DNA of 61,273 bases, filler included, from Asterionella formosa (lineage: Eukaryota), in NCBI GenBank assembly GCA_002256025.1. It is 14 parts of 14 records of this genome, joined end to end, with 100 filler letters (N's around TTAATTAATTAA, not from the genome) between each part and the next. Parts side by side here need not be neighbours in the genome. Positions count along the whole stretch, not along the records: positions 35,112 to 39,392 come from NKIB01013609.1; 13 more parts are not named here. One strand, given 5' to 3'. The notes under the pieces were generated by a model that was given only the letters and a program-made list of their open reading frames with translations, was not told the DNA's origin and ran no database searches. Position numbers and translations under genes: made by a program. Numbering within the stretch: the first letter of the stretch is position 1; each line of letters begins with the position of its first letter. Positions 4,253 to 61,273 of this stretch are shown piece by piece.

Positions 4253-4303
4253 GGGAGTGTGGGGGGTCTGTTTCCGTTGTGCAGAAGCCGTCTGTGTGAC
4301 GAA

Positions 4304-4403
4304 NNNNNNNNNNNNNNNNNNNNNNNNNNNNNNNNNNNNNNNNNNNNTTAATTAATTAANNNNNNNNNNNNNNNNNNNNNNNNNNNNNNNNNNNNNNNNN
4401 NNN
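4304..4403. other. Artificial contig-joining spacer (N-run, TTAATTAATTAA, N-run); first of 13
   Basis: The same 100-nt spacer with six-frame stops recurs at 8698, 13091, 17478, 21864, 26247, 30630, 35012, 39393, 43773, 48150, 52526 and 56900. Contig lengths fall steadily from 4303 to 4274 bp. Confidence 0.99.
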
Positions 4404-4404
4404 T

Positions 4405-7400
4405 GAAAGCTACAAGAGTTTGGTAGTAGGAAGGTTCGGCCTGGCGCGCAACACGCTAACGGTCGAAGAGATTAAGACAGACATCCCGGACTACTACGAT
4501 CTATATGTCCGGGATGACGTCAAAACGACTAACAAGAACAAGAGTGAACAGGCCTTCTACACGAAAGGGAAGTTCAAAGGTGACTGTCGTAAGTGTGGCA
4601 AGTATGGCCACAAGGCGGCTGAATGTCGCAGTAAGGGCAATAGTGCCGACAAGAAGGAGCTCACTCCTGAGCAGAAAGAAAAGAGGAAAACGATCAAGTG
4701 TTTCAAGTGCCAACGCATGGGACACTACGCAAGTGAGTGCACCAGTAACAGTGCATCTAAGAATAATAAAAACGAAGAAAACAACACGACTACATCTACC
4801 CAGCAAGGAATGTTCGTCGCCACGTGTGTCGAAATTAGTTACAACGAGGAAGTCAACCTCGCTCGTGACGTCAGAAATCGCTGGTTGTTAGACAGCGGTG
4901 CTACTGTTCACATCTGCACAGACGTGCGCATGATGGAAGACAAGAAACAAGTGAGTGAAACGGTCGTGGTAGGGAATGGAACTGAGATAGTATCAACTGT
5001 CTCTGGTACCGTGACCCTGACGACTACGGACGAAGGAAAATGCTTGAAACTCACCGATGTGCTTTATGCACCGGAGTTCAAGCAGAACATCATCAGTGTC
5101 TCTAGAATGATCGACAAGGGTAATCAAGTGATCTTCGAGGATGATAGGATGACGATAAGAAACAAGAGCGGTTTTCTAACCTGCAAAAGAGATAAAACTC
5201 GAAAGCTCGGAGCAATGTATCATGTCGAAGGTAATCCGATCATCAAGCAAACGGTGATGGAAGTCGATCAACTGCAAGAGAACGCGACACAACAATCGAT
5301 CGACGACTACAACGAAAACGATTGGACGAAAGTTGAAGCAAAGAAAACGAACAAAGGAAAGAACAAATGGAATAATCAAAATGGTGAGTTTGAAAATAAT
5401 TATGTGATTGTCGATATCAATGAAGCGCATGCGATGCTTGGTCATGTGGGCGAGAAATGTTTGCACGATACGGCGAAATTATTTGAATGGAAGTTGAGCG
5501 GCATCATGACAGTGTGCGCAGGCTGTGCGGCAGCGAAAGCGAAAGCACGAGCCGTCCCAAAAACAACGCAAGAAAAATCGACGGTACCTGGAGAGAGACT
5601 GTTTGTGGACATCAGCGGACCCTACGCGAAATCCGCTGTTGGCAATCAGTACTGGGTCATGGCAGTGGACGACTACACAAGAAAGCGCTGGAGCTATTTC
5701 ATTAAAAAGAAGAGCGATATCGGAACAGTCATTGAAATTTTACTATCAAGTTTAGCCGGAGCCGGTCACAAGACAAAGTATGTCCGTTGCGATGACGCAG
5801 GCGAGAATACTAAACAATTGAGAAAGGTATGTGAAAATCGCGGCATAAAAATGGAATTTACTGCCCCGCACACTCCACGTCACAATGGTGTAGTGGAACG
5901 CGGTTTTGTCATTGTGCGACAGAGGGCACTAGCAATGATGCTAAGTGCGAAACTAACAGATGAGTACCAAGGGCTATTATGGGCAGAGGCGGTACATACA
6001 GCTACACGTTTAACAAATAGTACAGTTAACTCAGTAACTAAAAGAAGTCCCGACGACATGTTCTACGGCGAAATGAATCCAAGAAGGCCCTACAAGTTAT
6101 ACAAGCAATTTGGGCGCGTAGGATGGGTTACTGCAAGACACGGCATTAAGAAATTAGACGCACGTTCTTTCAAGTGTGTCTTTTTGGGTTATTTGGAGGA
6201 CCACTCCCAAGATACGTATCGTATGTATAATCATGAGACTAACGCTGTAATCAATACACGCGATGTTAAGTGGAGTGAGTGGCATGGAACAAATGCACCT
6301 ACAGACGGACTAGGAAAAATCTACAAGGACAGTGCTAAAGAGAAAGTAACAGTTCAACCAGAAGCTGAAGTCAATAATGATGGATTAGATGATGATTTCT
6401 ACAATGAAGATTTACTACCAGAAGGTTCAGACAACAAGGAAGATGATGACGACAAGGATAAAGCAACCGCAGACACTGAAAAAGGAAAATCTACCTCAAG
6501 GAGTGATGAAATTTCTGACCTAGAAAAGAGAAATGTTTTGAAGCAACAGGCAAAGTTGGAACGAGAAATGAAGAAGTTGGACTCATCATACAATCCAACT
6601 AAAAATGTTAAATTCACTTCAGACACTTCACTACCAAATGTGATTGAGGAGGAAGCTTCTTCGAATAAGGAAACTGAAGTAAATTTCGTATTCAATGCAA
6701 GTCTTGCATCGGACCCAGGTTTACCAAATAGTTATAATGAGGCAATGGTAAGACCTGATCGCAAAGAGTGGATGAAAGCTATAAAGAAAGAATTTGAAAA
6801 CTTCCAAGCAAGAGGAGTGTGGAAAATAGTTAAGAGAAATGACGTGAACAAGAGAGCTCTTAAGACAAGATGGGTCTTCCGTATTAAGGAGGACGTGATA
6901 ACCGGAAAGACAGTATACAAGGCACGGTTGGTTGTAAAGGGATATGAACAGATCCCGGGAGTTGATTTTACTGAAACATTCGCTCCTGTTGCAAGTGATG
7001 CTACAATAAAAACTGTTCTGGCTGTTACTTTGTACTACGGTTGGATAGCGGAAGCAATCGATGTTGAAGCAGCGTTTTTAAATGCTGACGTCGACGAAGA
7101 CATTTATATTGAGCCCCCAGAAGGATTGACAGGGATCGATCAGAATATACATATCTGCAAATTAATTAAGGCTATGTATGGAATTGTACAAGCTCCAAGA
7201 TGCTGGTCTAAGACATTTGCGAAATGCGTCACCAGCAAGAAAGGTATAACGAAAAGTGAAATAGACCCAATGTTGTTTATCTACCGTAACAACGATGGAC
7301 AAATTGAAGGGCTGTTGGCAAACTACGTGGATGATGGAATTATTTGTGGTACCAGGAATGCAGTCGACTATATGAAAAATATGATCAAGGAGGATTTTAA

Positions 7401-8697: not shown

Positions 8698-9582
8698 NNN
8701 NNNNNNNNNNNNNNNNNNNNNNNNNNNNNNNNNNNNNNNNNTTAATTAATTAANNNNNNNNNNNNNNNNNNNNNNNNNNNNNNNNNNNNNNNNNNNNCGT
8801 AGATGAGCTCACTTTAATAACAAAGTGACACAAGCTTTCAATAGAGAAACGCTAAATATAATACTGAAAGCTGAGGAGAACCAACCAATGCTTTTCATAG
8901 CCGAACAATTCCACCCTATAGTTCTCTACCGTTAGCCACTCACATGGGAGGGGATCTACTGGGTACAAGCAGCTCACCTGCGAAGGGCCAAGATTGCCAA
9001 TTTCGATGAGCTAGTTGTTATTGCCTCTGCAGATCCAGATCACGAAAGAGTGCCCATGTCCATGACTATCCGATTGAAATACAGACTTGTGTGTTAAAAT
9101 GGTGTTCTATATGTAGTAGTGGTTACACCCCTCTTGTGAGGACTCTCCTTCATTGATGCAACAAGTGGCGCAATCGATTTGTTCATAGGGTCCTGGCAAA
9201 CGCTACTTGAAAGCCATCCTAGCCTGTCGTTTGCATGTCCTCACAATTGTCATCTGTGCATTTAAAATATAAGCCTCCGCCAAAGATAAGATGTGAGTAG
9301 ACATGGCAATTGTGGGATGAATATCATAAGGTATATGTTTCCGATTGCCTGGGGTAGATCGGGGACACACATCTCTCGACAATACCACGGAAAAGCATGC
9401 AGTAACTACTAATGTTCTAGATCCACTTTTTGGCCAGAGGCATATGCAAAAACTTTTTTACAATCTGTTGAGGAATGCTCTGCAATGAAATGAAATTTAA
9501 AAAGTTTGCTTGCATACGGCTAATTTTGCTTGTATACGGCTAACATCCTCGTGTCCCCAAAACCACTACATGTTGTCATTTA

Positions 9583-11499
9583 TTACGTCGTCATGTAGGA
9601 GCTCACGTCCAATTCATCCGGAAGGACGGGAATGGAAACTTCAAATCGGCTCTGCACCTTATCGAGGATCTCCTTGTCAGCATCACTGGAGATAAACGAG
9701 ATCGCAATACCCTTGGTTCCGAAACGACCAGCGCGACCAACACGGTGAAGGAACTGGTCAGAATCGTCAGGGAAGTCGTAGTTAATAACGACATTGACAC
9801 GTTCGATATCAATTCCGCGACCAAAAAGATCGGTGGAAACTAGGATACGCGCATTGAACTCTTTGAATGACTTGTATTTGGCAATGCGCTCTTCTTGCTT
9901 TTGTCCAGCATGGATGCAAATAGAAGGGAAATTACACTCGGTCAAGAGACGATTAAGCTCGTTTGCGCGAGCAACCTTGGACACAAAAATGACAACCTGA
10001 TTAAATTCCAAAGCGTCGAGTAAGTCATTCAACTTACGGTTCTTTTCCGCCTCTGCGAGCTTCGTGTAATACAACTGCAAACCGTGGAGAGTCAATTTCG
10101 TATCATCGTCAACGTAAATCTCCATAGGATCTTGACAAAACTTTTTACAGACAGGACGTATTTCCTTGCTGAGAGTAGCACTGAACATCATGACCTGCTT
10201 TTCATGAGGTGTCATTTTGAAGATTTCCTGGATATCGCGACGCATATCAAGAGACTCCAAAATTTTGTCACACTCATCTAGGACGAAATGTTTGATGTGA
10301 TCTAGCTTCAGTGCCTTCTCACGAGCGAGACCAAGGACACGTCCAGGTGTTCCGACAACAATATGAGGGCAGTCGCTCTTCAAGATATCTCGGTTCTGCT
10401 GAATGGGCACACCGCCGTAAAAAACAGCAGTCTTTACATCTGGAAGGTACTTGGCGAAACGTTCGTACTCATGAGCAATCTGGAAGGCAAGCTCACGTGT
10501 GTGACAAATAACCAAAACGGAAACTTGGTTTTCGCCTTCAGGGAAGGCCGATGGGTTAAGCTGGTGGAGGGTGGCAAGAACAAAGACAGCAGTCTTTCCC
10601 ATTCCAGACTTTGCCTGACAGACAATGTCCATACCAAGGACAGCCTGAGGAATACATTCATGTTGGACCTCAGATGGATGCTCAAATCCGCAATCAACAA
10701 CAGCGCGGAGACATTCTGGCTTCAAAATGAAATCCTTGAAACCAGACGCATGTATACCGACATAGTGACCCCTGTTCCGAAGAAAGTGATGGAGGAATGA
10801 TAATGTTTAGTCTTCGAGTTTGATCTGTGATGGATGTATTGAGTTTCTTTCGTTGTGTGTTTGGTTGGGATTTTAGGGGAACAGAAGCTGATACATTGTC
10901 CATGATTACAACGATCGTTTGAAAGGATCATTCCAATACACTGATGTTGTTTTGTCGAAACCGAGCGAGTTGCGGATAGCAGATATGCGTTTCATTGACC
11001 TGAAGCAACCCACGTGGGTGGCTCGCTCCACAGGTCATGCCATTCCTCAAGTGCCAAACGGTCACAAAACTCTCGTGCATCGGTCAGGAAGGTCGCAGCG
11101 CCGCAGCCCCAAACAGTCTCCTGTTCACACAAACCTGCACAATCTGATACTCTCCATCATCCATCACAACGAAGCTTCCTGCATTCGCGCTTTTTGATTA
11201 TAACATTTCAACGCGTACAACTCAAAGTATTACGTTAGACTCACTTCTTGACATCTTTGGTATCGACCGAGGCCTTGTCCACCGAAACGTCGGCTACTTC
11301 CTATTTTGAAAAATCGAAAAATAATTATTTGTTGGAGCAGTTCAAAAACAGACATTAGTACGACGGTCACCGGCAAGACGGCACAATGATCTGAAACGCC
11401 AATCAAATCATTGCATTACAATGGCTCGTCCCCTTGCCTTTCTCGTACCTCTTCTTCGTCGTAGTCGACCAGTTCTTCTTCGGGATCGTGGTCTGCCAT
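9583..11499 (-). CDS. UAP56: UAP56/Sub2/DDX39B DECD-box RNA helicase, 431 aa; exons 11499-11449, 11300-11245, 10771-9583
   Basis: Motifs [29 protein letters not shown] and [10 protein letters not shown]. Removing two GT-AG introns (11448-11301, 11244-10772) gives 1296 nt in frame and the conserved N-terminus [17 protein letters not shown]...[21 protein letters not shown]. Confidence 0.96.
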
Positions 11500-13521: not shown

Positions 13522-13807
13522 TGTTGAATATGTGTAATGGACATGTCGGTAACGGTTACACCAATTACACCGATATTGGCAATGACCGCACCAACCATGC
13601 CAGCGTGCAAACCAACGAACAAGAGTGGATCACAGCTGAACCAAGAAATATCAGGATTAGAGATAGTGTGTCTGGTACCAGCGAAACTGGCTCACTTTAA
13701 TTTAATTATTTGGTTTTATAAACAATACCATCCCGTTGTGCTTTTTTATCGTCGGATTCGTTGTTTTATGGACACGAAGACATATTGAGAACATTGTGGT
13801 TTCAACA
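13522..13807 (+). repeat. Family A LTR (286 bp), TGTTGAA...TTCAACA
   Basis: Perfect 7-bp terminal inverted repeats. Homology with contigs 13 and 14 starts exactly at TGTTGAA, where those copies have a PPT and this copy has unique flank. Confidence 0.92.
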
Positions 13808-13830
13808 TAATTAAATTAAAGTTAAATAAG

Positions 13831-17477: not shown

Positions 17478-17589
17478 NNNNNNNNNNNNNNNNNNNNNNN
17501 NNNNNNNNNNNNNNNNNNNNNTTAATTAATTAANNNNNNNNNNNNNNNNNNNNNNNNNNNNNNNNNNNNNNNNNNNNCCCCCCGCCCCG

Positions 17590-17617
<28 letters not shown>

Positions 17618-24002: not shown

Positions 24003-26346
24003 GTCAAAATATTTGAATAATCAATCAGTTTTTCAATTTATGCTGAGTAAAATGCTAGATCTAATTGAAAATCTATTCACAGACGCCTGCTTTGCTATTT
24101 GGTACATATATATCAAGTACAACATGCATAGACAATATAATCATAAAAAAATTTTAATACCACTAATATTGACAACAAAAATTGAAGTTGCGAAAGTGTA
24201 TTTTTCATATAATTTAAAGATGCCCAAGTCAAAACAACAATGTCATCAACAAAGTTGACACTTTCACAGTTGCTCTATGTCACGGTTGATTTATGTCTCA
24301 ACGTCTGTGGAGAACACATGATATCTAAAAATAGAATTCTTCCTCCAGTATGTCGGGTATGGAGACGTGTAGTAGGAGGAGTGAATTTAGAGGATATTGT
24401 TGTCCATCTTTTCCTCTAGTTAATTGATTGCTAATTTTATACATGGATGACTGAGGCCAATACTCAAACAACAATTTCTAGTCAATAAGTGGGTATTGGA
24501 ATGATGAACGGGAATGCCACTATATTTTTAGAGCATATATGAATCATCCCCCATTTTAGTCAGTTTGCAAGGCCAATGGATAGTAGGCCTATTGGTAGAT
24601 TGGTGTCTGTAAAATCCATTTTTGATCCCATCAAAGGTACCAACAAGAACTTACTTTGGATGCAACACCACCCTTAGTAGCACCGCCCCAATCTGGCCAC
24701 TTGGAAATTGCCCAAATCATGCTGGTTCCTTGCTTTCTTGGGTGCAATAAAATCACTGCCGCATCATCCTCTCCCTTTTCCATTTGTCAGACGAAGCCCT
24801 ATCCCACTCACTTGCTCTCAATGGAATCACAAACACAGCCAAATAACTCAGATTTATAAAGAGTTGACTTCGTTGAAGTTTTGAATGGCAACACAGCAAA
24901 CCAAGCAATCAACCTACTCCAAGGAGTTGTTCAGACTATTGACGAGATTTCGCCTTGCCTCTGTCAAGGTCTTGTCAGTCAGTATCCAGCAGATTTTCAA
25001 TTCACGAATGTAACATTTACCTCTGTGTAGAACAACAATGTTGAGTGTATGCGAAAAGTAGTGGCATAGGAATGATCACAAGGATCATGACAAAGCAACA
25101 GACAACAATGCTGAGCCAAGAAGTGTAATCAATAAAACCTATAAATGCACATACCAGTAAGAAGCAACTTAGTCCCTGCTGGTCACAGCTTGCATATCAT
25201 GTTCATCATTTCTATTTAGATAAAAAATATTTCATCATGGTTTTGTCAAATTACATAGGATTTTCTAGATCCTATTTTTTCAATGGTGACATATGCAATT
25301 TGATTGCTCAGATCAGCTGATTTACAAACTTTCTGAAATCTAACAACTTGCTTGCTGGTAAGCATTTTACATGTGTGATTTTGGATTTTGGATACAGGCA
25401 CCCAGAAAAACGTGCTTACCAGCAAGTCATTGATTTGAGCAAGATCTCAGTCTGCTGCACCAAAAATGATACCCCAAATTTCTCTCAGCAGCCAAGTAAG
25501 GAGGAGCGATAGAGAATTTATAAACAAATTTTCGGTCTGGAGGTCAAAACACGTTGTTGGTTGTGGCATCCAAATTCTATTTGTACATGTCAAGTGCTCC
25601 ATGTGGATATTGGTATTATCATCATGGTCAAGGCTGAGATGACATGAAGGATTCTCAAGCCACTAGTACCATGACTAGTGAAATACTGGTAGTGGTACTG
25701 GTAAGTCTGGTGTTAAACTACACATCAGCTAAATAATTATATACCAGGTCGTGGATAATGGTTTCTCGCCCTGCCGGTAACAACGTGAACCCTGGAGTCG
25801 TGGTTGTTGTCCCAATGAGGTGGTGACAGCAAAGCAGTCGTTGGAGTTTTCCCGATCGTGGTTTCACGCCATGTATTGTGTCGTGCTGGTAACGTTGGGG
25901 ACGACGATACATGTCCACAGATGCTCTCAACGACCGCTGAAAGTGTACCAGGTAGGAGTAGCCACTTTGTACATATGGAGTACCGGTACTGTATAGCTAA
26001 CAAGGCCGCCAAACACACCGCGCGGCGCTGGACCGGTATTCGACGGCAGCACACGTGTACAGTACTGCACATGCCAGTATATTTAATAAGGAAATACCAG
26101 TAAAGGCACACTGGTACACGGGAGTCTGACTCGTCAGGAAATGCCTGACCTCAGCTTGCAGCTAATAACACGGACATTTTGTACATACTGGTATGACAAC
26201 TCCCCTCAGGGAGCAATTGTCGTCGTGTGAATGATTACCGGTAGACNNNNNNNNNNNNNNNNNNNNNNNNNNNNNNNNNNNNNNNNNNNNTTAATTAATT
26301 AANNNNNNNNNNNNNNNNNNNNNNNNNNNNNNNNNNNNNNNNNNNN

Positions 26347-26558: not shown

Positions 26559-27400
26559 GGTACTAGTTGACATGATGCCTCCTTAACAAAGACAACATGT
26601 TATCCAATATATAGTATTTGAATCATCGTTTCATTTTGTCCATTGAGATCCATGATGCCTTTAGTTCTTGCTAGTCTCTCCTCTTGTAGATGACACCTTG
26701 GATGCGCGTGTTTTAGATGCTGTATTGTTGTCATGTTTATCAAGGTCAAAGATGCCCACTAAAATTCTTCTGAAGTTTAATCTTATTGAAATGCTGGAAG
26801 ATGTTGACAAAAGTTTTTCTTTCCTTTGATAAAAATATTGTGTTCTTTTTGCCTAAAATTTTCCACTTTTTCTTTGGAGTAGGTATATGAATATCTTGGA
26901 TGATTCTGATACAGTGCAAAGCTCATTGACCAGATGAATGTGGGCAACATGAATCATGAAGATCAATTACATATATGCTTGTTTCCTGTAATTAATTTAT
27001 GGATAACCGCAGGAAGGATAAGAAGATAGTTCAGAGAGAGGGGTGCCAATAAAATAACAAAATTATTATCAAGCAAAGATATCAAATTTTCGCCAATGCT
27101 TCAAACTTTAGAGTATACTTCTTATCCTTGTAGGGTAGTAACTATTTCGGTACTAACCTCCATCAAGAAATCATCCACTGTGGTTGTAAAATCCAAAAGA
27201 TTTTTTTTCCCATCTTTATCTTCCTTGATCTTTGATTTGGTCAGGAAATGTTTACACCAAGAGCTGAACAACCACCTTGATTGTTCGATATGGTTTTGAA
27301 ATTAAGCAATTACATTTCCATTTTAAATTCTTCGTACACCAAATTTTGAGGATGCCCCTCAACGTGGCAATTGTTGCGGGCTTGTGATGCAAGATGTGAT

Positions 27401-36889: not shown

Positions 36890-37832
36890 TGACATTCAAG
36901 GGTAAGACTTTCTCCTTCCTTTTGCTTTGTAGTGAAAAGCATTTTCATTGCATCTAAAATGATCTCCTGATAATTTAGTGCATGTTCTTTTATTGCAATA
37001 AGCAATGTTATTGGGTTATTCTCAATCTTATTCTTCATGGCTTTGTAGCATCTTTCCCAGAGCAACTCATATGCCTTGGTATTAATGTTTTTGTAGATCT
37101 TTATGCTCTTGCTATACTAAGCATCGTAATTGGCCAAAAATCGATTTCAAATTGTCGATTGAGTACAAAGCAATCTCCTTCTGTTGTAGCAGAGGAGCTC
37201 AGCTGTATTCTTGGCTTCCATGCCAATCATGTGTTCATTGGTTCTAAAAATTTGAGCGCAGTTCCCATGTCATTGCCATAATCAAATAAATTCTTGATGA
37301 AGTTGATCAGGTACTCTGTGGTAGTTTCAAAAATCAGATGCCTGCTTTGCCGATCAGAGGTAATAGTTGTAGTCATTGATAGACCTCGTGTTGGAATGGG
37401 ATGCAGGATTGCTCCCTCCCTTGGCTTGGAACCTGCCCTTGACTTGAGCCATCTTGGTGAACTTTCCTTTGCCACTCATCTTGCACCTTTTGAGACTTCT
37501 TCAGACTCTGTATGGTCTGGTACCCTCGATTCTTTACTCTGGACTCTCCACAGTCCGCTTTATGTTGTTTCTTGACTTGCGGCACTTCCTGGCTGGATGA
37601 TTCAATTAAAACCACTGTTGAAATTGCATCCCAAAGCCTTATATTGCTATCTTGTATCCTGTAAGGACACATCAGGGACCAAATAGGTTGAAGATATGAA
37701 CAACAATGTTGTAGAGATCAATTTTAATCGTTCCTAAACGTTTTAATTGAACTATGGGTTTTAATGTTGGTGCAGATTGTTTTCGAACCTGATTTTGGTA
37801 CCATATACTTTTTTGATTCATTCGATTCAACA
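36890..37832 (-). mobile_element. CoDi-like copia family B relic: 5' LTR plus degenerate gag
   Basis: Gag-like peptides across frameshifts: LNDYNYYL.SAKQASDFETTTEYLINFIKNLFDYGNDMGTAL and LWERCYKAMKNKIENNPITLLIAIKEHALNYQE...TTKQKEGESL. An LTR-like block lies upstream. Confidence 0.8.
37616..37832 (-). repeat. Family B LTR (217 bp), TGTTGAA...TTCAACA on the minus strand
   Basis: Perfect 7-bp terminal inverted repeats, positioned just upstream of gag. Only one copy is visible. Confidence 0.7.
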
Positions 37833-39800: not shown

Positions 39801-40351
39801 CATCACTATATGATGTGTACCTGTGTTGTGGTACTATCAGTTGGAATACACATGTAACCCTGTAGGTCTGTCATTACTACTTGACAATAAAAGTCCACAT
39901 CATACATATCGGCATTCTACTTGGAAATGTCATGCTATGTATCCATGAATTACTTTTTGTCAAAAGTCCACAAATATCTAGTTCTTCCAACTTATCTCAG
40001 AATTCCTCCTCTGAAGAGGATGATAGCATCTTGCAGAGTCCAGGAGATAGTTCGTCAGATGATAGTGCTTCCTCTTCTGGGAAAAAAGGGGTACATCCTA
40101 ATAACTTTTCCATCCTGACATTGTCACCTGCAGGCAACACTCCAGCACGGATGAGGGGGACGCCATAACACTTTCTCGTACAAAAAAGGCGACATTGGTA
40201 TCTATTGTCACCTCGTACTCAGGCTAAAACACGTTTTGTACAGACAAGTTGACGACATTGGTATCGTCTATTGGTGATGGAGAGGACGCAATAACACGTT
40301 GTTTTCGTACTACCAAGCTGACATTGATATCTATTGTCATCTCGTACTTAG

Positions 40352-40667
40352 GTTAAAAGTAAGATCAAATGAGCTAAAAGTTGTTATCTGTGATCCTATT
40401 TATTGGCAATCATATCTAACCAGAAAGTATGATCTGTAATTTTTTAGTAGTAAGATATAGTCATGTTAAAAGTAAGATCAAAAAGGCTAAAAATTGTTAT
40501 CTGTGATCATATTTATTGGCAATTGTATCTAGCCAAAGTATGATCTGTAATTTTTTTTTAGCAGTAAGATATATTCATGTTAAAAATAAGATCAACAAAG
40601 CTAAAAATTTTCATCTGTGATCATATTTATTGGCAATCATTTCTAACCAGGAGGTATGATCTGTAAA
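40352..40667 (+). repeat. Tandem repeat, ~116-bp unit, ~2.7 copies
   Basis: TTAAAAGTAAGATCAAA...TATCTGTGATCATATTTATTGGCAAT...GTATGATCTGTAA occurs three times. Confidence 0.85.
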
Positions 40668-43872: not shown

Positions 43873-46211
43873 CCCACGGTAGCTTGGATGGGCATGAAAT
43901 ATTACGTTGTCACTACGAGTGTGGTCGCACATCACTTCAATTTCCATTGTTGACAAAATGAAAGGAAGGAGTTGGGCGCCTAGAACTCGCACCAGATCTT
44001 GGTCAACCCCAGTTTTGCAGATGCTACTTGATGATGATGAAACCCTGGCAATCTCAAATTCACCATTTCCATCTTCTTCAATCAGAAGAGAATATCGAGT
44101 ACCTCCTGTTTTGGATTTCACAATTCCAATGTCAACTGGGACAGCTTCCAACTTGTATTGTAAATCTCCAATATCTTCGCCAAGAAACTGACTCCAAGCG
44201 GTTCCGATCACCATGTTCTCCACCATTCTCGCCCCACTTTGAATATCCATCACATCTTTGCGTTTCTGGGAAGTCCTGGCTGGTAATTCACACAAGAATT
44301 TAAGATTCTTTTCCATTGGGCCTCCATTAAAAACCTGTGGACTTCCGAAACGATGAATGTTTCTTACAGTATGCATCTGATGATGAAACTTTGCAAGCTT
44401 CCATCCCTGAGAGGTTGTTGTTGCTTCTTGGGCATTCTTTTACCAGCTTAGTAAAATAGTTGACAATGCTTTGGTGTTCCTGTGGTAAATTTCCCACATC
44501 ATAGCTCTCTTTACTAAACCAGGCATTGTAGCAGAGCAGCCCTTCGAATAGACCTTGAAAGTTTCGAATGTCTTGATTGGTCATACCACTTTCTTCTCGG
44601 CAGATATTGATTCAAGCATCACATGCCATGACAACACAGGCAATAAGCGTCACTCTGATTCTTTCGTTAGCAGTAATTTTCGTTTTGCAACCATGAAAGC
44701 CGAAATTGAAGGAACAACGAGGAAGGTCTCGGTCACTCTGGTGAAGGAAGAGTTTAGATATTTTGTTGAACAACTGGTCAAACAGTTTTCGATTGGAATT
44801 ACTTTACTGTTTTGGGGCGCCCGATCATATAAGAATATAGCTCCATGAGGTGATCCATTATTCCTTCTTGAATGGAATGGAGTTTTTCAGGAGGAATATG
44901 CCCATTTACACCAAGAGGATCGCCACCAAAACACAACCGATACCAAAAGGGATAGATGAATCTTTTGCTCACATTATCCTATAAATCTTTTATGCCCCAG
45001 AATAAAAGTTCCTTGTAATCAATCTGACCTACAGGACTGCATTCAAGAGATGGATTGTCCATTTGATCAAACAGACAATCATATTCACGACACATTCTGG
45101 CAGTCTTTAGATATGTTTTCTTTTGTCCGCATTGTTCATCTAAACCTTATTCAGCATCACCGAGAATTAGACCAACCGGAACTTTCACATTAAGTGTAAA
45201 TTGATTGCCTCCGAAATTGAAAATGTGTTTGAATCCACCAGCTTCAAGAATCACACCAAGGACAGCCTAATAATCGGATTCCTTTTGATCAGGGGTTAGG
45301 GACTGGATTTCAGATAGACTTGATGAGGTCAGCTTTGGGATCAATCCGATTGGCCGCCATGCATTGACCTTATTTCTCACATTGGTAGTAAATATACCAA
45401 GTGACATTAGGACATGCTCCATTGTGTACTTTCCTTTTTCAACCATGTGTGTCTTGTCAATAAAGAACATGAGTGGAACAAGGAAGTCATTTGGCTGAGA
45501 ACATAAATATTCATGGGCATCTATCCACCAGGTACCAGTGTGAAATTCGGATCTGACACTGGTGGGTTGTGGTGCTTTACACGGATTCTTGACGAAATCA
45601 AATGACACATTTTGTGGTGACATTAGTGTGTCATTTGTCAAGAGATTCTTAACCTGAGCCATGAAATCAAAACATAAAACATCAATCAGTTTTCCATCAT
45701 GCAATATGGCCTGTTTCACCTGGGGAGTTAAATCATTAATGTTAAATCGGTTTTGAAATTCTTTCAGAACAGTGGTCCTCCTGGGAGGACAAGATTCAAA
45801 AATGAATCCAGCTTCCTGAGCTGTGCTGCAAAAACTCATGATTTGATCATACATTTAAAGAGGAGAACGGGTGCCAAGCAAAAGACTAAGCAGTCGAGAC
45901 TTCATAACATTGCCAACTGAGGATGGTATACCAGGATCGGCGGAGGAAAACCTAATCCCTGTGGTGCTCAGGACTGGAATAGTATTGGTTTCATCCTGTA
46001 CCACTATTTTGCTTGTATTTTCTTTATCTTCTTTTTGATCAATGTCATATATATTGGTATGATCGCCAAAATGTAGTGTTTGAACATGACAAATATTGGC
46101 CCTTTTCTTTAATGACGACGAAAAGTCATCAGCAGGTGATGGTGGAGATTGACGAAATCCATCATATTCTTCCTGACCGTCTTCTGGACCAGTTGCTAGT
46201 TTACGAAACAA
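43873..46211 (-). pseudogene. Decayed Plavaka-like (EnSpm/CACTA-related) transposase, 3' truncated
   Basis: Collinear motifs SEFHTGTWW, LVPLMFFIDKTH, RNKVNAWRPIGLIP, VPVGLILGDAE.GLDEQCG...RMCREYDC, FGGDPLGVNG..PPEKLHSIQEG, IHRFGSPQVFNGGPME and FHAHPSYRG, with several stops and frameshifts. Confidence 0.75.
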
Positions 46212-52625: not shown

Positions 52626-55600
52626 GGACCAGGTATTTTTTGGAGGCACAGGGGTATGATGTACAGGAGTCTATCATATATCAAGATAACCAAAGCACTA
52701 TGCTGCTGGCAATGAATGGAACAGCTTCAAGCAGCCGTCGAACACGTCACATTAATATCCGATATTTCTTTGTGGCAGACCGGGTCACATCAGGGGAAGT
52801 GAAAATAGAATACTGCCCAACTGCACAAATTTTAGCCGACTATTTTACAAAGCCTTTGCAGGGGAATCTATTCCGCACGATGCGGAACATGATCATGAAT
52901 GTTAATCCTACATCAGACCACACTTATGCCATGCAGGATTATAGGAGTGTGTTGAATATGTGTAATGGACATGTCGGTAACGGTTACACCAATTACACCG
53001 ATATTGACAATGACCGCACCAACCATGCCAGCGTGCAAACTAACGAACAAGAGTGGATCACAGCTGAACCAAGGAATATCAGGATTAGAGATAGTGTGTC
53101 TGGTACCAGCGAAACTGGCTCACTTTAATTTAATTATTTGGTTTTATAAACGATACCATCCCGGTGTGCTTTTTATCGTCGGATTCGTTGTTTTATGGAC
53201 ACGAAGACATATTGAGAACATTGTGGTTTCAACAGAATTAAATTAAAGTTAAATAAGATGGACAAGGTGAAAACAGAAGGTGGGGACGCCGACACGAAGG
53301 TTGACAAGGATTTCGGCATTGATGCCAAGAAAAGAGGTCGCTTCAACTTCGGAAAGCAACAGGCATCCCGGACACCAGCCGCAACGAAATTCGAAGGCAA
53401 ATGCAACGAATTAAGAGGAAATGTGTATGACTGCTCGGATATGAAGCAAGTAGACCTATTCGCAAAGACGACGAAGGAGATTGCAGGTTTCGTAGGGCGC
53501 ACCTACAAATACGGTGGTGACATACGATTGGTGGTTGAGAACCTTGAGATGGTCAGCATCACTACACCTAAGGATCCACCAAAGGATTCTACACGCACAG
53601 AGGAACGAATTTGGGAGAAAGAAGTGGATGAGTTTGTAAAGAGATCAACATACCTCAAAGAAAACATCAAGACACTATACTCCCTTGTATGGGGACAATG
53701 CACGGATATAATGCAGCAGAAGGTTGAGGCCACGGACATATTTGACACAATGTCAATGGAAGGCAATGGTTTGATTCTCCTTAAAATCATCAAGGACGTC
53801 AACTATAACTTCCAAAGCCAGAAATACCTGCCTCACTCCCTATACGAATCCAAACGCAGGTTCTATATGTGTGTCCAGGGACGAAACATGACGACACAGG
53901 TCTACCTAGAACACTTCCAGAACATGCTAGATGTTATTGATCACAGCGGAGGGACCATTGCTGGCGACTCAGGAATCGAGAACATGATTCTGAATGAAAA
54001 GACAACTAGCAAGGAGAACATGAATGATCAACAGTTAAGTGAACTCAAGGCAGAGGTACTCAAGCGATTCACAGCAGTAGCATTCCTAGTAGGAGCTGAT
54101 CGTGTACGCTACGGCCGTCTGGTTGATAATATGGAGAACGACTTCCTACAAGGACGAAACAACTATCCCGAGACCGTCAGTGCAGCCTACCATCTACTAA
54201 CAAACTGGAAGCAGGATCCACGGCATGGGCTACACGAAGTAGGGGCAGTTGGTGATGGCGTATCCTTTCACAATGTGAATGACAAAGATGGAACGACACT
54301 GAACAACAACAGCGAGAATGGCGCGCGGAAAAGGCCAAAAGGAAAGGCACACATCATGTGCCACCGATGCCAAAAGAAGGGGCACTACGCTACGGAATGT
54401 GAGGAGCCTGCACCTGTCCCTAGGAATTTGACCACCAGTACTCCTCCCACAGCTGAAACGACATCAACCCAGTCCGCCACCACACTACTAATGGATGGTG
54501 TGCATGAGGGAGAATTCGAGGAAAATGTACACTTCCAATTTCTAAATCAAGGAGGAGTGAGTCTGAAAATTGGGCCCGATGGAAGGCTACCACGTACATG
54601 GATACTATTAGACAATCAGTCAACAGTTGATGTGTTCCATAACGCGGAACTCCTACGCAACATCCGTGTCCACACCAGTAAGATGGATATCCACTGCAAC
54701 GCTGGTATAATCAGCACCCAACTCGTCTCATAGGAGACCTTCATGGATATGGAACAGTATGGTACAACCCAAAGGGAATCGCGAACATCCTGTCCCTCGC
54801 ATGTGTCAAGGAGCATGGATACAGGGTAACATTTGATAGCAGCCAGGGCAATGCATTCCATGTTCACAAACCTGACGGAACCTATAGAGTGTTCAAAGAA
54901 TCAATGAAAGGCCTATACTACATGGATACAAAGGATCGCTCTGGAGTCACCCTTATCAATACGGTAGACGATAACCGTACTAGCTACTCCCAACGTGACT
55001 ACTCACAAGCTGTGCTAGCCCGAAAGATACAGAAGATTATTGGGCGTCCTAGTACCCGCACATTCATCAAGATTGTCGAGAACAACCTGTTCCCAAACTG
55101 CCCAATCACACGCGATGACATTATAGCGGCAGAACAAATCTTCGGGCCCGATGTGGGCTCGCTAAAAGGAAAAACAGTGCACCGTAGTTCAGTGCCAGTG
55201 AGGACCAACTCTACCACCATCCCCGCCGGGATTATCGACAAGTACCGTGTCGTGACACTTGCAGGTGACATCATGTTTGTCAACATTATGCCCTTCCTTG
55301 TCACCATATCAAGACACATCAAATTTAGCATGGGCTCCTCGAAAACCGATGGCTACCAACAATAATCAAGGCCATTGACAATGTGCGCAAACTCTACATA
55401 AAAAGAGGTTTCCAAATCGAAACAATCATCATGGATGGACAATTTGACGGACTGCGGGCCAACTTAGCCGAAATGGGAATGACACTCAACAGTTCTGCAA
55501 ATGACGAGCATGTCCCTGAGGTTGAATGCCACATTCGCACACTTAAAGAACGAGTGCGATCTGTCTACAACATGTTACCATTTGCCAAAATGCCAGCTCG

Positions 55601-56765
55601 TATGATTATCGAGCTTGTCTATTATTGTGGGTTCTGGCTAAACAGTTTCCCAGCCCACGGTGGAATATCTCCTACTCTCAGTCCACGCACTATAATTGCA
55701 GGCATGACCATTGACTACAACCATCACTGTAAACTTGAGTTTGGAACATACGCACAAGTCCACGAGGAACACGATAACAGCATGACTGCACGCACGGTTG
55801 GGGCCATTGCCCTACGCCCAACAGGAAACCACCAGGGCGGACACTTCTTTTTCAGCCTAAGCACAGGTCGCGTCCTAAACCGCAGCCATTGGACTGTGCT
55901 GCCAATGCCCACTGATGTTATCGATCGCGTTCACAAAATGTCATGTCGGGATGAAACTGAAGTCACCCTATACTTTGCCACAAAACGCGGTCAGATTGAA
56001 GATGAGATGCATGACGATGTTGACGATGACCCCTTTGATCCAGCCAACAATGACAATACTGACGAAGATGATGACGACAACGCTGATGCCGCAGCACCCG
56101 TCCACATCGTAGGAGTGAATGACAATAGCGATGTAGAAGGTGTAGAAGATGGAGACGAATACGATCTCGAAGCCACGGAACCAGGCAACGAACTAAACGA
56201 AAACACTGCCGAACTCAACGATGAAGAAGAAGTCGACAAGGAACCCAACCCGCCTGATAATGATGAACCAAGAGCTGACAACAGCGATGTAGATGGTGAA
56301 GACAAACACGATCCCGAAGCCACGGAACCAGGCAACGGAATAAACGAAGACACTGCCAAACCCAACAATGAAGAAGAGGTCGATGAGGAACCCAGTATCG
56401 AACAACGGATTCAACAAATGGACGCCGCATATGGCCAGAGACAACACCAATACGATCTGCGGGCTCGCAAGCCTTGCGACTATAGTCACCTACATGTCAT
56501 ACTAGAAGTCACCGTCATGACCCAACACAACATAAAGAAAGGGCTAAAAGTATTCGGCGAAGCCGGTGTGGAGGCTGTGCTTAAGGAATTGAACCAATTA
56601 CATGAACGTGGAGTACTCAAACCAACAAAAAACTTATCACATGAGCAGCGCACGGATGCACTACAATACCTCATGTTTTTGAAACAAAAACGCAATGGAA
56701 CAATTAAGGGCCGTGGCTGTGCTGATGGTCGGAAGCAACGTCAGTACACAACTAAGGAAGAAGCT
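52626..56765 (+). mobile_element. Copia family A copy 2: RNase H end, PPT, LTR (52950-53234), frameshifted gag-pol (53258-56765)
   Basis: RNase H C-terminus YQDNQSTMLL...RTRHINIRYFF...ADYFTKPLQG, purine-rich AGGATTATAGGAGTG, an LTR, then gag. Near-identical to copy 1 and shares two of its frameshifts and the RT insertion. Confidence 0.93.
52950..53234 (+). repeat. Family A LTR (285 bp)
   Basis: TGTTGAA...TTCAACA, near-identical to 13522-13807. Confidence 0.92.
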
Positions 56766-57133
56766 ACATCTAAGACGCGAAATACGCCACTTTTCGAAAT
56801 TTCGTCTACGTATGAGTGTTAATTATGTGGTACTTCACATGCATTAATGCCACTCTTCACGTAAAAAAGATTACTTTTAACTGTTTCATGTGAAGTTTTN
56901 NNNNNNNNNNNNNNNNNNNNNNNNNNNNNNNNNNNNNNNNNNNTTAATTAATTAANNNNNNNNNNNNNNNNNNNNNNNNNNNNNNNNNNNNNNNNNNNNA
57001 AAACTTCACATGAAACAGTTAAAAGTAATCTTTTTTACGTGAAGAGTGGCATTAATGCATGTGAAGTACCACATAATTAACACTCATACGTAGACGAAAT
57101 TTCGAAAAGTGGCGTATTTCGCGTCTTAGATGT

Positions 57134-60100
57134 AGCTTCTTCCTTAGTTGTGTACTGACGTTGCTTCCGACCATCAGCACAGCCACGGCCCTTAATTGTT
57201 CCATTGCGTTTTTGTTTCAAAAACATGAGGTATTGTAGTGCATCCGTGCGCTGCTCATGTGATAAGTTTTTTGTTGGTTTGAGTACTCCACGTTCATGTA
57301 ATTGGTTCAATTCCTTAAGCACAGCCTCCACACCGGCTTCGCCGAATACTTTTAGCCCTTTCTTTATGTTGTGTTGGGTCATGACGGTGACTTCTAGTAT
57401 GACATGTAGGTGACTATAGTCGCAAGGCTTGCGAGCCCGCAGATCGTATTGGTGTTGTCTCTGGCCATATGCGGCGTCCATTTGTTGAATCCGTTGTTCG
57501 ATACTGGGTTCCTCATCGACCTCTTCTTCATTGTTGGGTTTGGCAGTGTCTTCGTTTATTCCGTTGCCTGGTTCCGTGGCTTCGGGATCGTGTTTGTCTT
57601 CACCATCTACATCGCTGTTGTCAGCTCTTGGTTCATCATTATCAGGCGGGTTGGGTTCCTTGTCGACTTCTTCTTCATCGTTGAGTTCGGCAGTGTTTTC
57701 GTTTAGTTCGTTGCCTGGTTCCGTGGCTTCGAGATCGTATTCGTCTCCATCTTCTACACCTTCTACATCGCTATTGTCATTCACTCCTACGATGTGGACG
57801 GGTGCTGCGGCATCAGCGTTGTCGTCATCATCTTCGTCAGTATTGTCATTGTTGGCTGGATCAAAGGGGTCATCGTCAACATCGTCATGCATCTCATCTT
57901 CAATCTGACCGCGTTTTGTGGCAAAGTATAGGGTGACTTCAGTTTCATCCCGACATGACATTTTGTGAACGCGATCGATAACATCAGTGGGCATTGGCAG
58001 CACAGTCCAATGGCTGCGGTTTAGGACGCGACCTGTGCTTAGGCTGAAAAAGAAGTGTCCGCCCTGGTGGTTTCCTGTTGGGCGTAGGGCAATGGCCCCA
58101 ACCGTGCGTGCAGTCATGCTGTTATCGTGTTCCTCGTGGACTTGTGCGTATGTTCCAAACTCAAGTTTACAGTGATGGTTGTAGTCAATGGTCATGCCTG
58201 CAATTATAGTGCGTGGACTGAGAGTAGGAGATATTCCACCGTGGGCTGGGAAACTGTTTAGCCAGAACCCACAATAATAGACAAGCTCGATAATCATACG
58301 AGCTGGCATTTTGGCAAATGGTAACATGTTGTAGACAGATCGCACTCGTTCTTTAAGTGTGCGAATGTGGCATTCAACCTCAGGGACATGCTCGTCATTT
58401 GCAGAACTGTTGAGTGTCATTCCCATTTCGGCTAAGTTGGCCCGCAGTCCGTCAAATTGTCCATCCATGATGATTGTTTCGATTTGGAAACCTCTTTTTA
58501 TGTAGAGTTTGCGCACATTGTCAATGGCCTTGATTATTGTTGGTAGCCATCGGTTTTCGAGGAGCCCATGCTAAATTTGATGTGTCTTGATATGGTGACA
58601 AGGAAGGGCATAATGTTGACAAACATGATGTCACCTGCAAGTGTCACGACACGGTACTTGTCGATAATCCCGGCGGGGATGGTGGTAGAGTTGGTCCTCA
58701 CTGGCACTGAACTACGGTGCACTGTTTTTCCTTTTAGCGAGCCCACATCGGGCCCGAAGATTTGTTCTGCCGCTATAATGTCATCGCGTGTGATTGGGCA
58801 GTTTGGGAACAGGTTGTTCTCGACAATCTTGATGAATGTGCGGGTACTAGGACGCCCAATAATCTTCTGTATCTTTCGGGCTAGCACAGCTTGTGAGTAG
58901 TCACGTTGGGAGTAGCTAGTACGGTTATCGTCTACCGTATTGATAAGGGTGACTCCAGAGCGATCCTTTGTATCCATGTAGTATAGGCCTTTCATTGATT
59001 CTTTGAACACTCTATAGGTTCCGTCAGGTTTGTGAACATGGAATGCATTGCCCTGGCTGCTATCAAATGTTACCCTGTATCCATGCTCCTTGACACATGC
59101 GAGGGACAGGATGTTCGCGATTCCCTTTGGGTTGTACCATACTGTTCCATATCCATGAAGGTCTCCTATGAGACGAGTTGGGTGCTGATTATACCAGCGT
59201 TGCAGTGGATATCCATCTTACTGGTGTGGACACGGATGTTGCGTAGGAGTTCCGCGTTATGGAACACATCAACTGTTGACTGATTGTCTAATAGTATCCA
59301 TGTACGTGGTAGCCTTCCATCGGGCCCAATTTTCAGACTCACTCCTCCTTGATTTAGAAATTGGAAGTGTACATTTTCCTCGAATTCTCCCTCATGCACA
59401 CCATCCATTAGTAGTGTGGTGGCGGACTGGGTTGATGTCGTTTCAGCTGTGGAAGGAGTACTGGTGGTCAAATTCCTAGGGACAGGTGCAGGCTCCTCGC
59501 ATTCCGTAGCGTAGTGCCCCTTCTTTTGGCATCGGTGGCACATGATGTGTGCCTTTCCTTTTGGCCTTTTCCGCGCGCCATTCTCGCTGTTGTTGTTCAG
59601 TGTCATTCCATCTTCGTAATCCACATTGTGAAAGGATACGCCATCACCAACTGCCCCTACTTCGCGTAGCCCATGCCGTGGATCCTGCTTCCAGTTTGTT
59701 AGTAGATGGTAGGTTGCACTGACAGTCTTGGGGTAGTTGTTTCGTCCTTGTAGGAAGTCATTCTCCATATTTTCAACCAGACGGCCGTAGCGCACACGAT
59801 CAGCTCCTATTAGGAATGCTACTGCTGTGAATCGCTCGAGTACCTCTGCCTTGAGTTCACTTAGCTGTTGATCATTCATGTTCTCCTTGCTAGTTGTCTT
59901 TTCATTCAGAATCATGTTCTCGATTCCTGAGTCGCCAGCAATGGTCCCTCCGCTGTGATCAATAACATCTAGCATGTTCTGGAAGTGTTCTAGGTAGACC
60001 TGTGTCGTCATGTTTCGTCCCTGGTCACACATATAGAACCTGCGTTTGGATTCGTATAGGGAGTGAGGCAGGTATTTCTGGCTTTGGAAGTTATAGTTGA

Positions 60101-61273
60101 TGTCCTTGATGACTTTAAGGAGAGTCAGACCATTGCCTTCCATTGATATTGTTTCAAATATGTCTGTGGCCTCAACCTTCTGCTGCATTATATCCGTGCA
60201 TTGTCCCCATACAAGGGAGTATAGTGTCTTGATGTTTTCTTTGAGGTATGTTGACCTCTTTACAAACTCATCCACTTCTTTCTCCCAAATTCGTTCATCT
60301 GTGCGTGTAGAATCCTTTGGTGGATCCTTAGGTGTAGTGATGCTGACCATCTCTAGGTTCTCAACCACCAATCGTATGTCACCACCGTATTTGTAGGTGC
60401 GCCCTACAAAACCTGCAATCTCCTTCGTCGTCTTTGCGAATAGGTCTGCTTGCTTCATATCCGAGCAGTCATACACATTTCCTCTTAATTCGTTGCATTT
60501 GCCTTCGAATTTCGTTGCAGCTGGTGTCCGGGATGCCTGTTGCTTTCCGAAGTTGAAGCGACCTTTTTTCTTGGCATCAATGCCGAAATCCTTGTCAACC
60601 TTCGTGGCGGTGTCCCCACCTTCTGTTTTCACCTTGTCCATCTTATTTAACTTTAATTTAATTATGTTGAAACCAAAATGTTCTCAATATGTCTTCGTGT
60701 CCATAAAACAACGAATCCGACGATAAAAAGCACACCGGGATGGTATCGTTTATAAAACCAAATAATTTAATTAAAGTGAGCCAGTTTCGCTGGTACCAGA
60801 CACACTATCTCTAATCCTGATATTCCTTGGTTCAGCTGTGATCCACTCTTGTTCGTTAGTTTGCACGCTGGCATGGTTGGTGCGGTCATTGTCAATATCG
60901 GTGTAATTGGTGTAACCATTACCGACATGTCCGTTACACATATTCAACACACTCCTATAATCCTGCATGGCATAAGTGTGGTCTGATGTAGGATTAACAT
61001 TCATGATCATGTTCCGCATCGTGCGGAATAGATTCCCCTGCAAAGGCTTTGTAAAATAGTCGGCTAACATTTGTGCAGTTGGGCAGTATTCTATTTTCAC
61101 TTCCCCTGATGCGACCCGGTCTGCCACAAAGAAATATCGGATATTAATGTGACGTGTTCGACGGCTGCTTGAAGCTGTTCCATTCATTGCCAGCAGCATA
61201 GTGCTTTGGTTATCTTGATATATGATAGACTCCTGTACATCATACCCCTGTGCCTCCAAAAAATACCTGGTCC
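57134..61273 (-). mobile_element. Copia family A copy 3 (reverse-complement variant of contig 13)
   Basis: Same length and structure as 52626-56899. SNPs are concentrated in RH, LTR and gag; the integrase-side ORF translations are identical. Confidence 0.93.
60665..60949 (-). repeat. Family A LTR (285 bp)
   Basis: TGTTGAA...TTCAACA on the minus strand. Confidence 0.92.

Follow-up and report, generated by a model that had tools for sequence, protein, structure and literature searches.

Diatom genomes are rich in stress-responsive copia elements. A locus in a 61,273-base stretch of the Asterionella formosa genome (assembly GCA_002256025.1; the whole stretch is called the window here) raises the question of what primes their reverse transcription. 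On the minus strand, a 217-bp block running from TGTTGAA to TTCAACA, which has the form of a long terminal repeat (LTR), is followed by GTG and then by an exact 12-nt complement of its own interior. The first-pass annotation of this DNA had described the arrangement in these terms, and all of its bases were found. We refer to the element as family B, and to a second element in the window that shows the same arrangement as family A. Our reading, held with good confidence, is that B is a diatom Ty1/copia element, present here as a dead copy, and that its lineage, like that of A, most likely self-primes as the fission yeast element Tf1 does.

An LTR followed by the complement of its own interior

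The window consists of 14 separate contigs, ordered by descending length from 4303 down to 4274 bp and joined by 13 spacers of the form N44-TTAATTAATTAA-N44 (for example 4304-4403 and 8698-8797). Since the contigs are merely joined, adjacency across a spacer is artificial and open reading frames (ORFs) that enter the N runs are artefacts. Family B occupies the ninth contig (35112-39392), which ends 2.5 kb downstream of the B block.

The block lies at 37616-37832 on the minus strand and is the sole copy in the window. A GTG spacer (37613-37615), atypical when compared with most relatives, separates its end from GTTTTAATTGAA (37612-37601), the exact reverse complement of TTCAATTAAAAC (37751-37740), which begins 136 nt before the last base of the block. 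The context of this left arm reads CCC-A-TAGTTCAATTAAAAC-GTTTAGG, and the 15-nt slot after CCA, a feature shared with the relatives described below, forms a putative self-primer (37740-37754) facing a putative primer-binding site (PBS), GTTTTAATTGAATCAT, at 37597-37612. Beyond the 12 exact pairs there is a G.U pair (37752/37600) and a mismatch (37753/37599), followed by two further pairs (37754/37598 and 37755/37597), and the slot measures 15-16 nt if the start is placed at CCAT(+1)A. Both imperfect positions are transition differences from a perfect complement, which is what one would expect of a dead copy. The minimum free energy fold of 37754-37595 closes the 5' end of B on the PBS (z=-3.1) with 13 PBS positions paired, and it contains a U5 hairpin with an 8-bp stem and a 3-nt loop at 37653-37671.

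Behind the leader lies a decayed gag remnant (36904-37478, minus strand; ATG at 37478-37476), broken into ORF fragments by frameshifts and stops; it is all that B itself retains of the copia genes. We call the block an LTR because of its termini, the gag remnant behind it and its colinearity with a relative, locus L080, whose corresponding distance agrees within 2 nt (see below). On these sequence grounds we take the locus to be the front end of a copia element, made up of its 5' LTR, its leader and a decayed stretch of gag of about 0.6 kb, and the first-pass identification of the block as a real LTR stands.

Chance as an explanation of the family B match

Could the 12-nt match in B be an accident of AT-rich, decayed sequence, even if its relatives self-prime? 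B is AT-rich, its spacer departs from the rule of its lineage, and five unrelated inverted-repeat loci of at least 12 nt occur in the 60 kb of the window. Against this, dinucleotide-preserving shuffles of the B LTR gave a complement of at least 12 nt at an offset of 0-6 in just 33 of 20,000 cases, so that shuffled LTRs did not match as often as the real one; with the family A LTR, 14 nt was reached in none of 20,000 shuffles. As an empirical null, 45 of 37,248 window positions, counted on both strands, score at least 12 nt, and 26 of these fall at the five loci outside families A and B (a rate of about 7e-4 per position). Two of the five (around 25363-25420 and 27020-27130) are ordinary inverted repeats away from LTR ends. 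Taken as a single test, the B match is unlikely to arise by chance, with a probability of between about 1 in 500 and 1 in 1400, and alone it is not overwhelming.

Its position adds to the case against chance, for which the per-position rate is 7e-4 to 2e-3. The left arm of B sits in the expected slot after CCA, 136-139 nt from the LTR end (136 nt in L080), and two further bases pair beyond the two transition differences. We consider chance the least probable of the explanations weighed here.

Family A in the window

Family A is present in three copies with LTRs of 285 or 286 bp, whose ends, TGTTGAA..TTCAACA, are those of B. In copy 1 (13522-13822, plus strand; LTR 13522-13807) the primer site at 13694-13709 and the PBS at 13807-13822 pair exactly over 16 nt, the last A of the LTR included. 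The 285-bp LTR of copy 2 (52950-53234, plus strand) carries the self-primer site ACTTTAATTTAATTAT at 53122-53137, and a G at 53235 cuts the 16-nt form to 14 exact nt, with the putative PBS at 53236-53249. In copy 3 (60650-60949, minus strand; LTR 60949-60665, PBS 60665-60650) a T>A change in the LTR primer site breaks the pairing. The family A primer site begins 113 nt before the LTR end, which is the geometry that the first-pass annotation had given.

Pfam searches detected a zinc knuckle alone on family A. For its ORF3 there are 873 homologs, and among 120 that were listed many carry a fusion to RVT_2 (PF07727); its gag has 265, the named ones coming from the diatoms Fragilaria crotonensis and Attheya. 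The family was found in 20 sequencing runs, 6 of them recorded as RNA, and in many freshwater and marine metagenomes. Logan contigs of runs X1 (possibly DNA), X2, X16 and X19 (RNA), available as fragmented unitigs, were aligned to 52626-54200; those of X1 and X2 part from the window sequence precisely at the two LTR ends, 52950 and 53234.

Contigs 13 and 14 (52626-56899 and 57000-61273) are mutual reverse complements along their entire 4274 bp (99.0%), and this extends to the 324 bp of flank that precede the family A LTR. They are one insertion seen twice, whether in two alleles, in two strains or through duplicate assembly. What contig 4 has in common with them is the element alone, from 13522 on.

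Exact pairing with changing sequence in relatives of family A

An alignment of 53 gag sequences led to 79 metagenome contig loci with 26-97% identity (designated by L numbers). For analysis of the region before gag, we kept the 62 loci that match from query residue 71 or earlier (17 later starts were dropped), of which 53 have at least 150 nt upstream. An exact complement of at least 12 nt was present in 37 of these 53 loci and measured 14-16 nt in 33 of the 37; its arms lay at the last A of an ..AACA end and 102-153 nt upstream. When the gag strand of every locus was scanned, a pair of 12-17 nt, mostly 14-16, was found in 48 of the 79; of the loci without one, most begin inside gag or retain a decayed pair 9-11 nt long. 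The first arm opens with the last A of ..CAACA and the other lies 102-154 nt upstream, directly after TCA. Similar results were obtained when the LTR end was defined blind to pairing, as any CAACA no more than 130 nt ahead of gag: a complement of at least 12 nt was then seen in 33 of 42 loci. When PBS and LTR partners from different loci were mismatched, 12 nt was reached in 19 of 3494 pairs. Paired sequences vary from one element to the next, and 35 distinct PBS strings were counted among 37 A-lineage elements.

The ends of these LTRs could be checked in L020, L065 and L038, which carry both LTRs and 5-bp target-site duplications (ATTAC, ATAAT and AGCAT, respectively); a polypurine tract of the CACAGGAGTG type abuts TGTTG. 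The duplications verify the LTR ends independently. In several other contigs (L001, L004, L012, L028, L063, L026 and others) the order is RT/RNase H (RT, reverse transcriptase), a single LTR, PBS and gag. Such circular permutation is expected from an assembler that collapses two LTRs, or from one-LTR circles, and the permuted contigs frame the LTR between polypurine tract and PBS.

Relatives of family B and the question of a host tRNA primer

B-type gag has 252 homologs, the named ones from the diatom Epithemia. In a search for more B relatives, genome contigs gave five loci, among which L080 alone had a usable upstream region, and viral contigs gave none. By tblastx, the B gag matched L080 (E=1e-37) and a B-like gag in L051 (E=1e-17), in segments that span 37386-36904 in different frames. 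From the end TTTCAACA to the first shared gag segment B measures 230 nt and L080 measures 232 nt, which makes the end of the B block homologous to the LTR end of L080.

In L080, TTAATCTCGAAATACT, preceded by cTCA, pairs over 17 nt with GTATTTCGAGATTAAT, preceded by A. The pair begins 136 nt upstream of the LTR end, and so does the exact 12-nt core in B. A second LTR of 246 nt is 100% identical with its last 18 nt missing, and ORF2 contains SH3_retrovirus (residues 299-353) followed by RVT_2 (621-690), which is the copia order. L051 holds a nested insertion (2814-3455, 3463-5443), in which a B-like element, whose LTR begins with TGTTGGAC at 3463, splits an A-like gag. Both elements carry their own primer/PBS pair, and that of the B-like one is a 15-nt pair directly after an LTR end of ..TTCAAGA. 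Alignment of its leader with B at the DNA level was uninformative.

L080 comes from a metagenome-assembled genome (MAG) labelled Chlamydiaceae, and L081 from one labelled Cytophagales. Diatom-type copia elements in bacterial MAG bins are most likely eukaryotic contamination.

These relatives bear on the possibility that family B uses a host tRNA (..CCA end, complement of TGGTTTTAATTG) or a fragment of one, the match to the LTR being incidental. A TGG does stand one base after the B LTR, and priming by a tRNA or half-tRNA is the rule in most Ty1/copia lineages, according to the available part of one survey (PMC6317226). However, TGG is found in B alone: L080 and L051 lack it, and the PBS strings of the three are mutually unrelated, each of the two relatives matching its own LTR. 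Priming by a tRNA would lead one to expect a PBS conserved among relatives, where there are instead the 35 strings among 37 A-lineage elements and three in the B lineage. The implied acceptor stem would also be nearly pure A/U, at odds with what is generally known of tRNAs, and the match of B to its own LTR appeared in just 33 of 20,000 shuffles. A host tRNA primer for B thus seems very improbable.

The central proposal of the first-pass annotation, that pairing is kept while sequence changes and is a property of the lineage, is borne out by the 48 of 79 relatives, the diversity of PBS strings, the rarity of mismatched pairs and the two B relatives. Its description of A and B as unrelated did not hold. 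They share the TGTTG..CAACA termini, the slot after TCA or CCA, the U5 hairpin and a weak gag similarity (tblastn E=0.01), and they belong to a single diatom copia radiation, on branches far apart.

Shape of the duplex and structure of the leader

A pairing profile was drawn up for 35 non-redundant elements, with the last A of the LTR as position 0. Positions 1-14 formed Watson-Crick pairs in 33-35 of the 35 elements and position 0 in 24, while position -1 was paired in none and position 15 in 8, which is background. The duplex thus has sharp boundaries on both sides. Its positions 0-14 contain two G.U pairs in all 35 elements, both at position 14, unlike the internal hairpins, in which G.U occupies 33 of 240 cells.

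The upstream arm begins in a recurrent context: 30 of the 35 elements carry TCAHW and pair from the H onward, and L078 carries CCATA, the same as B. In the part of Kadono et al. available to us (PMC4686930), TCAH(+1)W is proposed as a diatom initiator-like motif, with transcription from H. A start at H would make the paired block coincide exactly with the RNA's first 15 nt, and this motif argument would place the complement at the very 5' end of the mRNA. In B, CCATA (37753-37757, minus strand) aligns with the motif of the relatives, with T 37754 as the predicted first transcribed base. The first-pass annotation had placed an initiator-like TCAATT at the pairing site of B. An initiator-like motif does lie near that site, but TCAATT is part of the primer, and the motif that agrees with the relatives is CCAT(+1)A (37757-37753), 3 nt upstream.

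RNAalifold, run on 30 leaders, predicted the helix between the 5' end and the PBS unaided, together with two internal hairpins, all with compensatory changes. The resulting 23-pair structure has 85.3% of cells paired, compared with 63.4% after shuffling; for all five measures, none of 500 shuffles attained the observed value, and slid registers gave 38-46%. About 5 alignment rows were misaligned by MAFFT, which lowered the score rather than raising it. Hairpin 1, GGUU..AACC, follows immediately after the primer (alignment A4 columns 33-36/62-65), and hairpin 2, UGYY-loop-RRCA, lies about 40 nt before the LTR end (columns 101-104/111-114). In single-sequence folds of B, A1, L020, L004 and L018, the 5' end closes on the PBS in all.

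Covariation, seen in about 50 elements, demonstrates that the pairing is selected, and it leaves room for a use other than priming. The helix could be a structural panhandle that serves packaging, dimerisation, translation control or RNA stability, another molecule acting as primer; the two further conserved hairpins inside the loop would suit this idea, being reminiscent of structured retroviral leaders. Yet the 3' arm stands exactly at the place of a PBS, from the last base of the LTR on, and position -1 is paired in none of the 35 elements. No other conserved site was noticed in the leader by eye, no dedicated search for one having been made; in the displayed leaders the gag start codon stands some 20-110 nt after the LTR end, as estimated by eye. 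The near absence of G.U from the duplex, compared with its frequency in the internal hairpins, also speaks against a panhandle, since templated copying fits a strictly Watson-Crick duplex better than selection at the RNA level does. We regard the panhandle as unlikely, though it is the most probable of the rivals.

Proposed mechanism of self-priming

Because the anatomy of the diatom elements is that of Tf1, we read them as self-priming. Transcription would start at the base after (T/C)CA within the LTR. The first ~15 nt of the RNA would loop back across R-U5 to pair with the PBS, whose start is the final LTR base or, in B, a position 3 nt further on. RNase H would nick the RNA after the duplex, freeing a 3'-OH that RT would extend through U5 and R. 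Finally, plus-strand strong-stop DNA would copy the primer and rewrite the PBS from it, an expectation that follows the general scheme of plus-strand strong-stop synthesis. Rewriting of this kind would keep the arms exactly Watson-Crick while their sequence drifts.

A broader proposal, on which our confidence falls somewhat short of even, is that the large diatom Ty1/copia radiation that includes A and B has dropped tRNA primers altogether, its members priming with their own first ~15 nt and rewriting the PBS in each cycle. The radiation with this pairing has so far been seen among diatoms alone.

Several points weigh against self-priming in these elements. The start site, the cleavage, the priming step and the templated renewal of the PBS are inferred, none of them having been observed, and covariation proves selection on the pairing without proving its use. 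Contigs from the RNA libraries also span U3 and the flank of the family A element, and contigs cannot show RNA ends. In B itself, contiguous pairing extends over 12 pairs and no further, the 3-nt GTG spacer is absent from most relatives, and one base after the LTR there is the TGG that a tRNA primer would call for. No second B LTR was found in the window, where the contig stops 2.5 kb downstream; with a contig of just ~4.3 kb, the single LTR says little. The R-U5 DNA of B and L080 shares 98 identical columns, barely above the 90.9 +/- 3.4 of shuffled sequence. Finally, ARAGORN found no tRNA genes in the window or in L001-L060 of the 84 loci, and Rfam gave no match at all in the window.

Comparison with known systems

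The comparisons that follow rest on the portions of the cited papers available to us. In Tf1, the RNA's initial 11 bases pair with the PBS, and RNase H cleaves between bases 11 and 12 (PMC7175516). Tf1 and Tf2 of Schizosaccharomyces pombe, which belong to the Tf1/sushi group of Ty3/gypsy elements, resemble the diatom elements in that the PBS complements the start of their own RNA (PMC7175516, PMC5341516). In Tf1/sushi elements, RNA structures in R-U5 join the two arms and a tRNA is dispensable, and we propose the same for the diatom elements; their U5 hairpins, predicted in 30 relatives and with an 8-bp stem in B, are analogous to the Tf1 structure, homology not being claimed. The differences are that the diatom elements are Ty1/copia, with integrase before RT, that they are known here from sequence alone, and that their duplex measures 14-17 nt, usually including the last base of the LTR, whereas that of Tf1 measures 11 nt. 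Self-priming is established for Tf1/sushi, and the diatom Ty1/copia elements would be a new member of this known mechanism.

Self-priming was also predicted by Neumann et al. (2019) from a rule that calls for a complement of the 5' LTR, no shorter than 10 bp, that starts 0-5 bp after its end (PMC6317226). Both families conform to it: B shows 12 bp at +3, and A shows 14-16 bp from the last LTR base or from the second base after it. The same survey predicts self-priming for the Tcn1 clade of mosses and also for TAR, a lineage of plant copia elements in which it had earlier been proposed for the families Houba and Osr-1 (PMC6317226). The TAR lineage is thus, like the diatom elements, a Ty1/copia group with a predicted self-primer, its hosts being land plants.

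Half-tRNA priming is another departure from the classical scheme, and copia and Ty5 are also half-tRNA-primed. Osser, Bryco, Gymco-II and Bianca are half-tRNA-primed Ty1/copia lineages of plants that, like the elements described here, have no classical PBS for a tRNA 3' end (PMC6317226). Their PBS is conserved and matches a host tRNA, whereas the diatom PBS varies from element to element and matches its own LTR. The fungal GalEa copia elements have no tRNA PBS either and carry a Conserved Hairpin Site at the PBS position; in the accessible text, the authors found no complement of that site in the LTR, in contrast to the diatom elements, which have one (PMC5445492). The CoDi groups are diatom Ty1/copia elements, as A and B are (Maumus et al. 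2009, PMC2806351), and a term search of the available text of that paper gave nothing on PBS, tRNA or priming. We found no account of self-priming in diatom elements in the literature searched, and subscription journals and supplements may hold more.

Other features of the window

A third copia family, family C, occupies contig 2 (4404-8697) and contains zf-CCHC, Pol_BBD, rve, SH3_retrovirus and RVT_2 domains according to Pfam. Over its integrase-RT-RNase H part (residues 655-1318) it shares 20-30% tblastn identity with the fetched loci of the A and B lineages. The contig ends in ..TTTCAACA, and neither a 5' LTR nor a PBS lies on it.

Elsewhere, the minus strand encodes a leucine-rich-repeat protein of 979 aa (1412-4351), a DEAD-box helicase (9583-10806) and a fragment of a Plavaka-type transposase (45267-45854; PF18759, E=5.5e-9). 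The start and end of contig 10 (39493-39799 and 43466-43772) repeat each other in inverted orientation (96% over 307 bp), and a tandem repeat with a unit of ~113 bp lies at 40327-40649 on the same contig. Contig 5 opens with a C-rich run, CCCCCCGCCCCGCCCCCCCC (17578-17597), possibly an assembly or telomere-like end.

Implications for diatom copia elements

Annotation tools that look for a tRNA-complementary PBS would under-score or misjudge self-priming diatom elements. A simple rule (TCA, 15 nt, and their complement after ..CAACA) would find them and would at the same time mark the start site and the LTR end. Self-priming in these elements would extend a mechanism proven in fission yeast alone to a second eukaryotic supergroup and would be its second copia case, and pairing that drifts and yet is always exact would amount to a natural experiment on the renewal of the PBS from the primer. 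PBS-targeting tRNA-derived small RNAs silence elements in mammals. If the diatom elements do self-prime, they would be freed from the host tRNA supply and might, as a matter of speculation, evade silencing of this kind, and their primer/PBS pair would be a fast-drifting, family-specific barcode.

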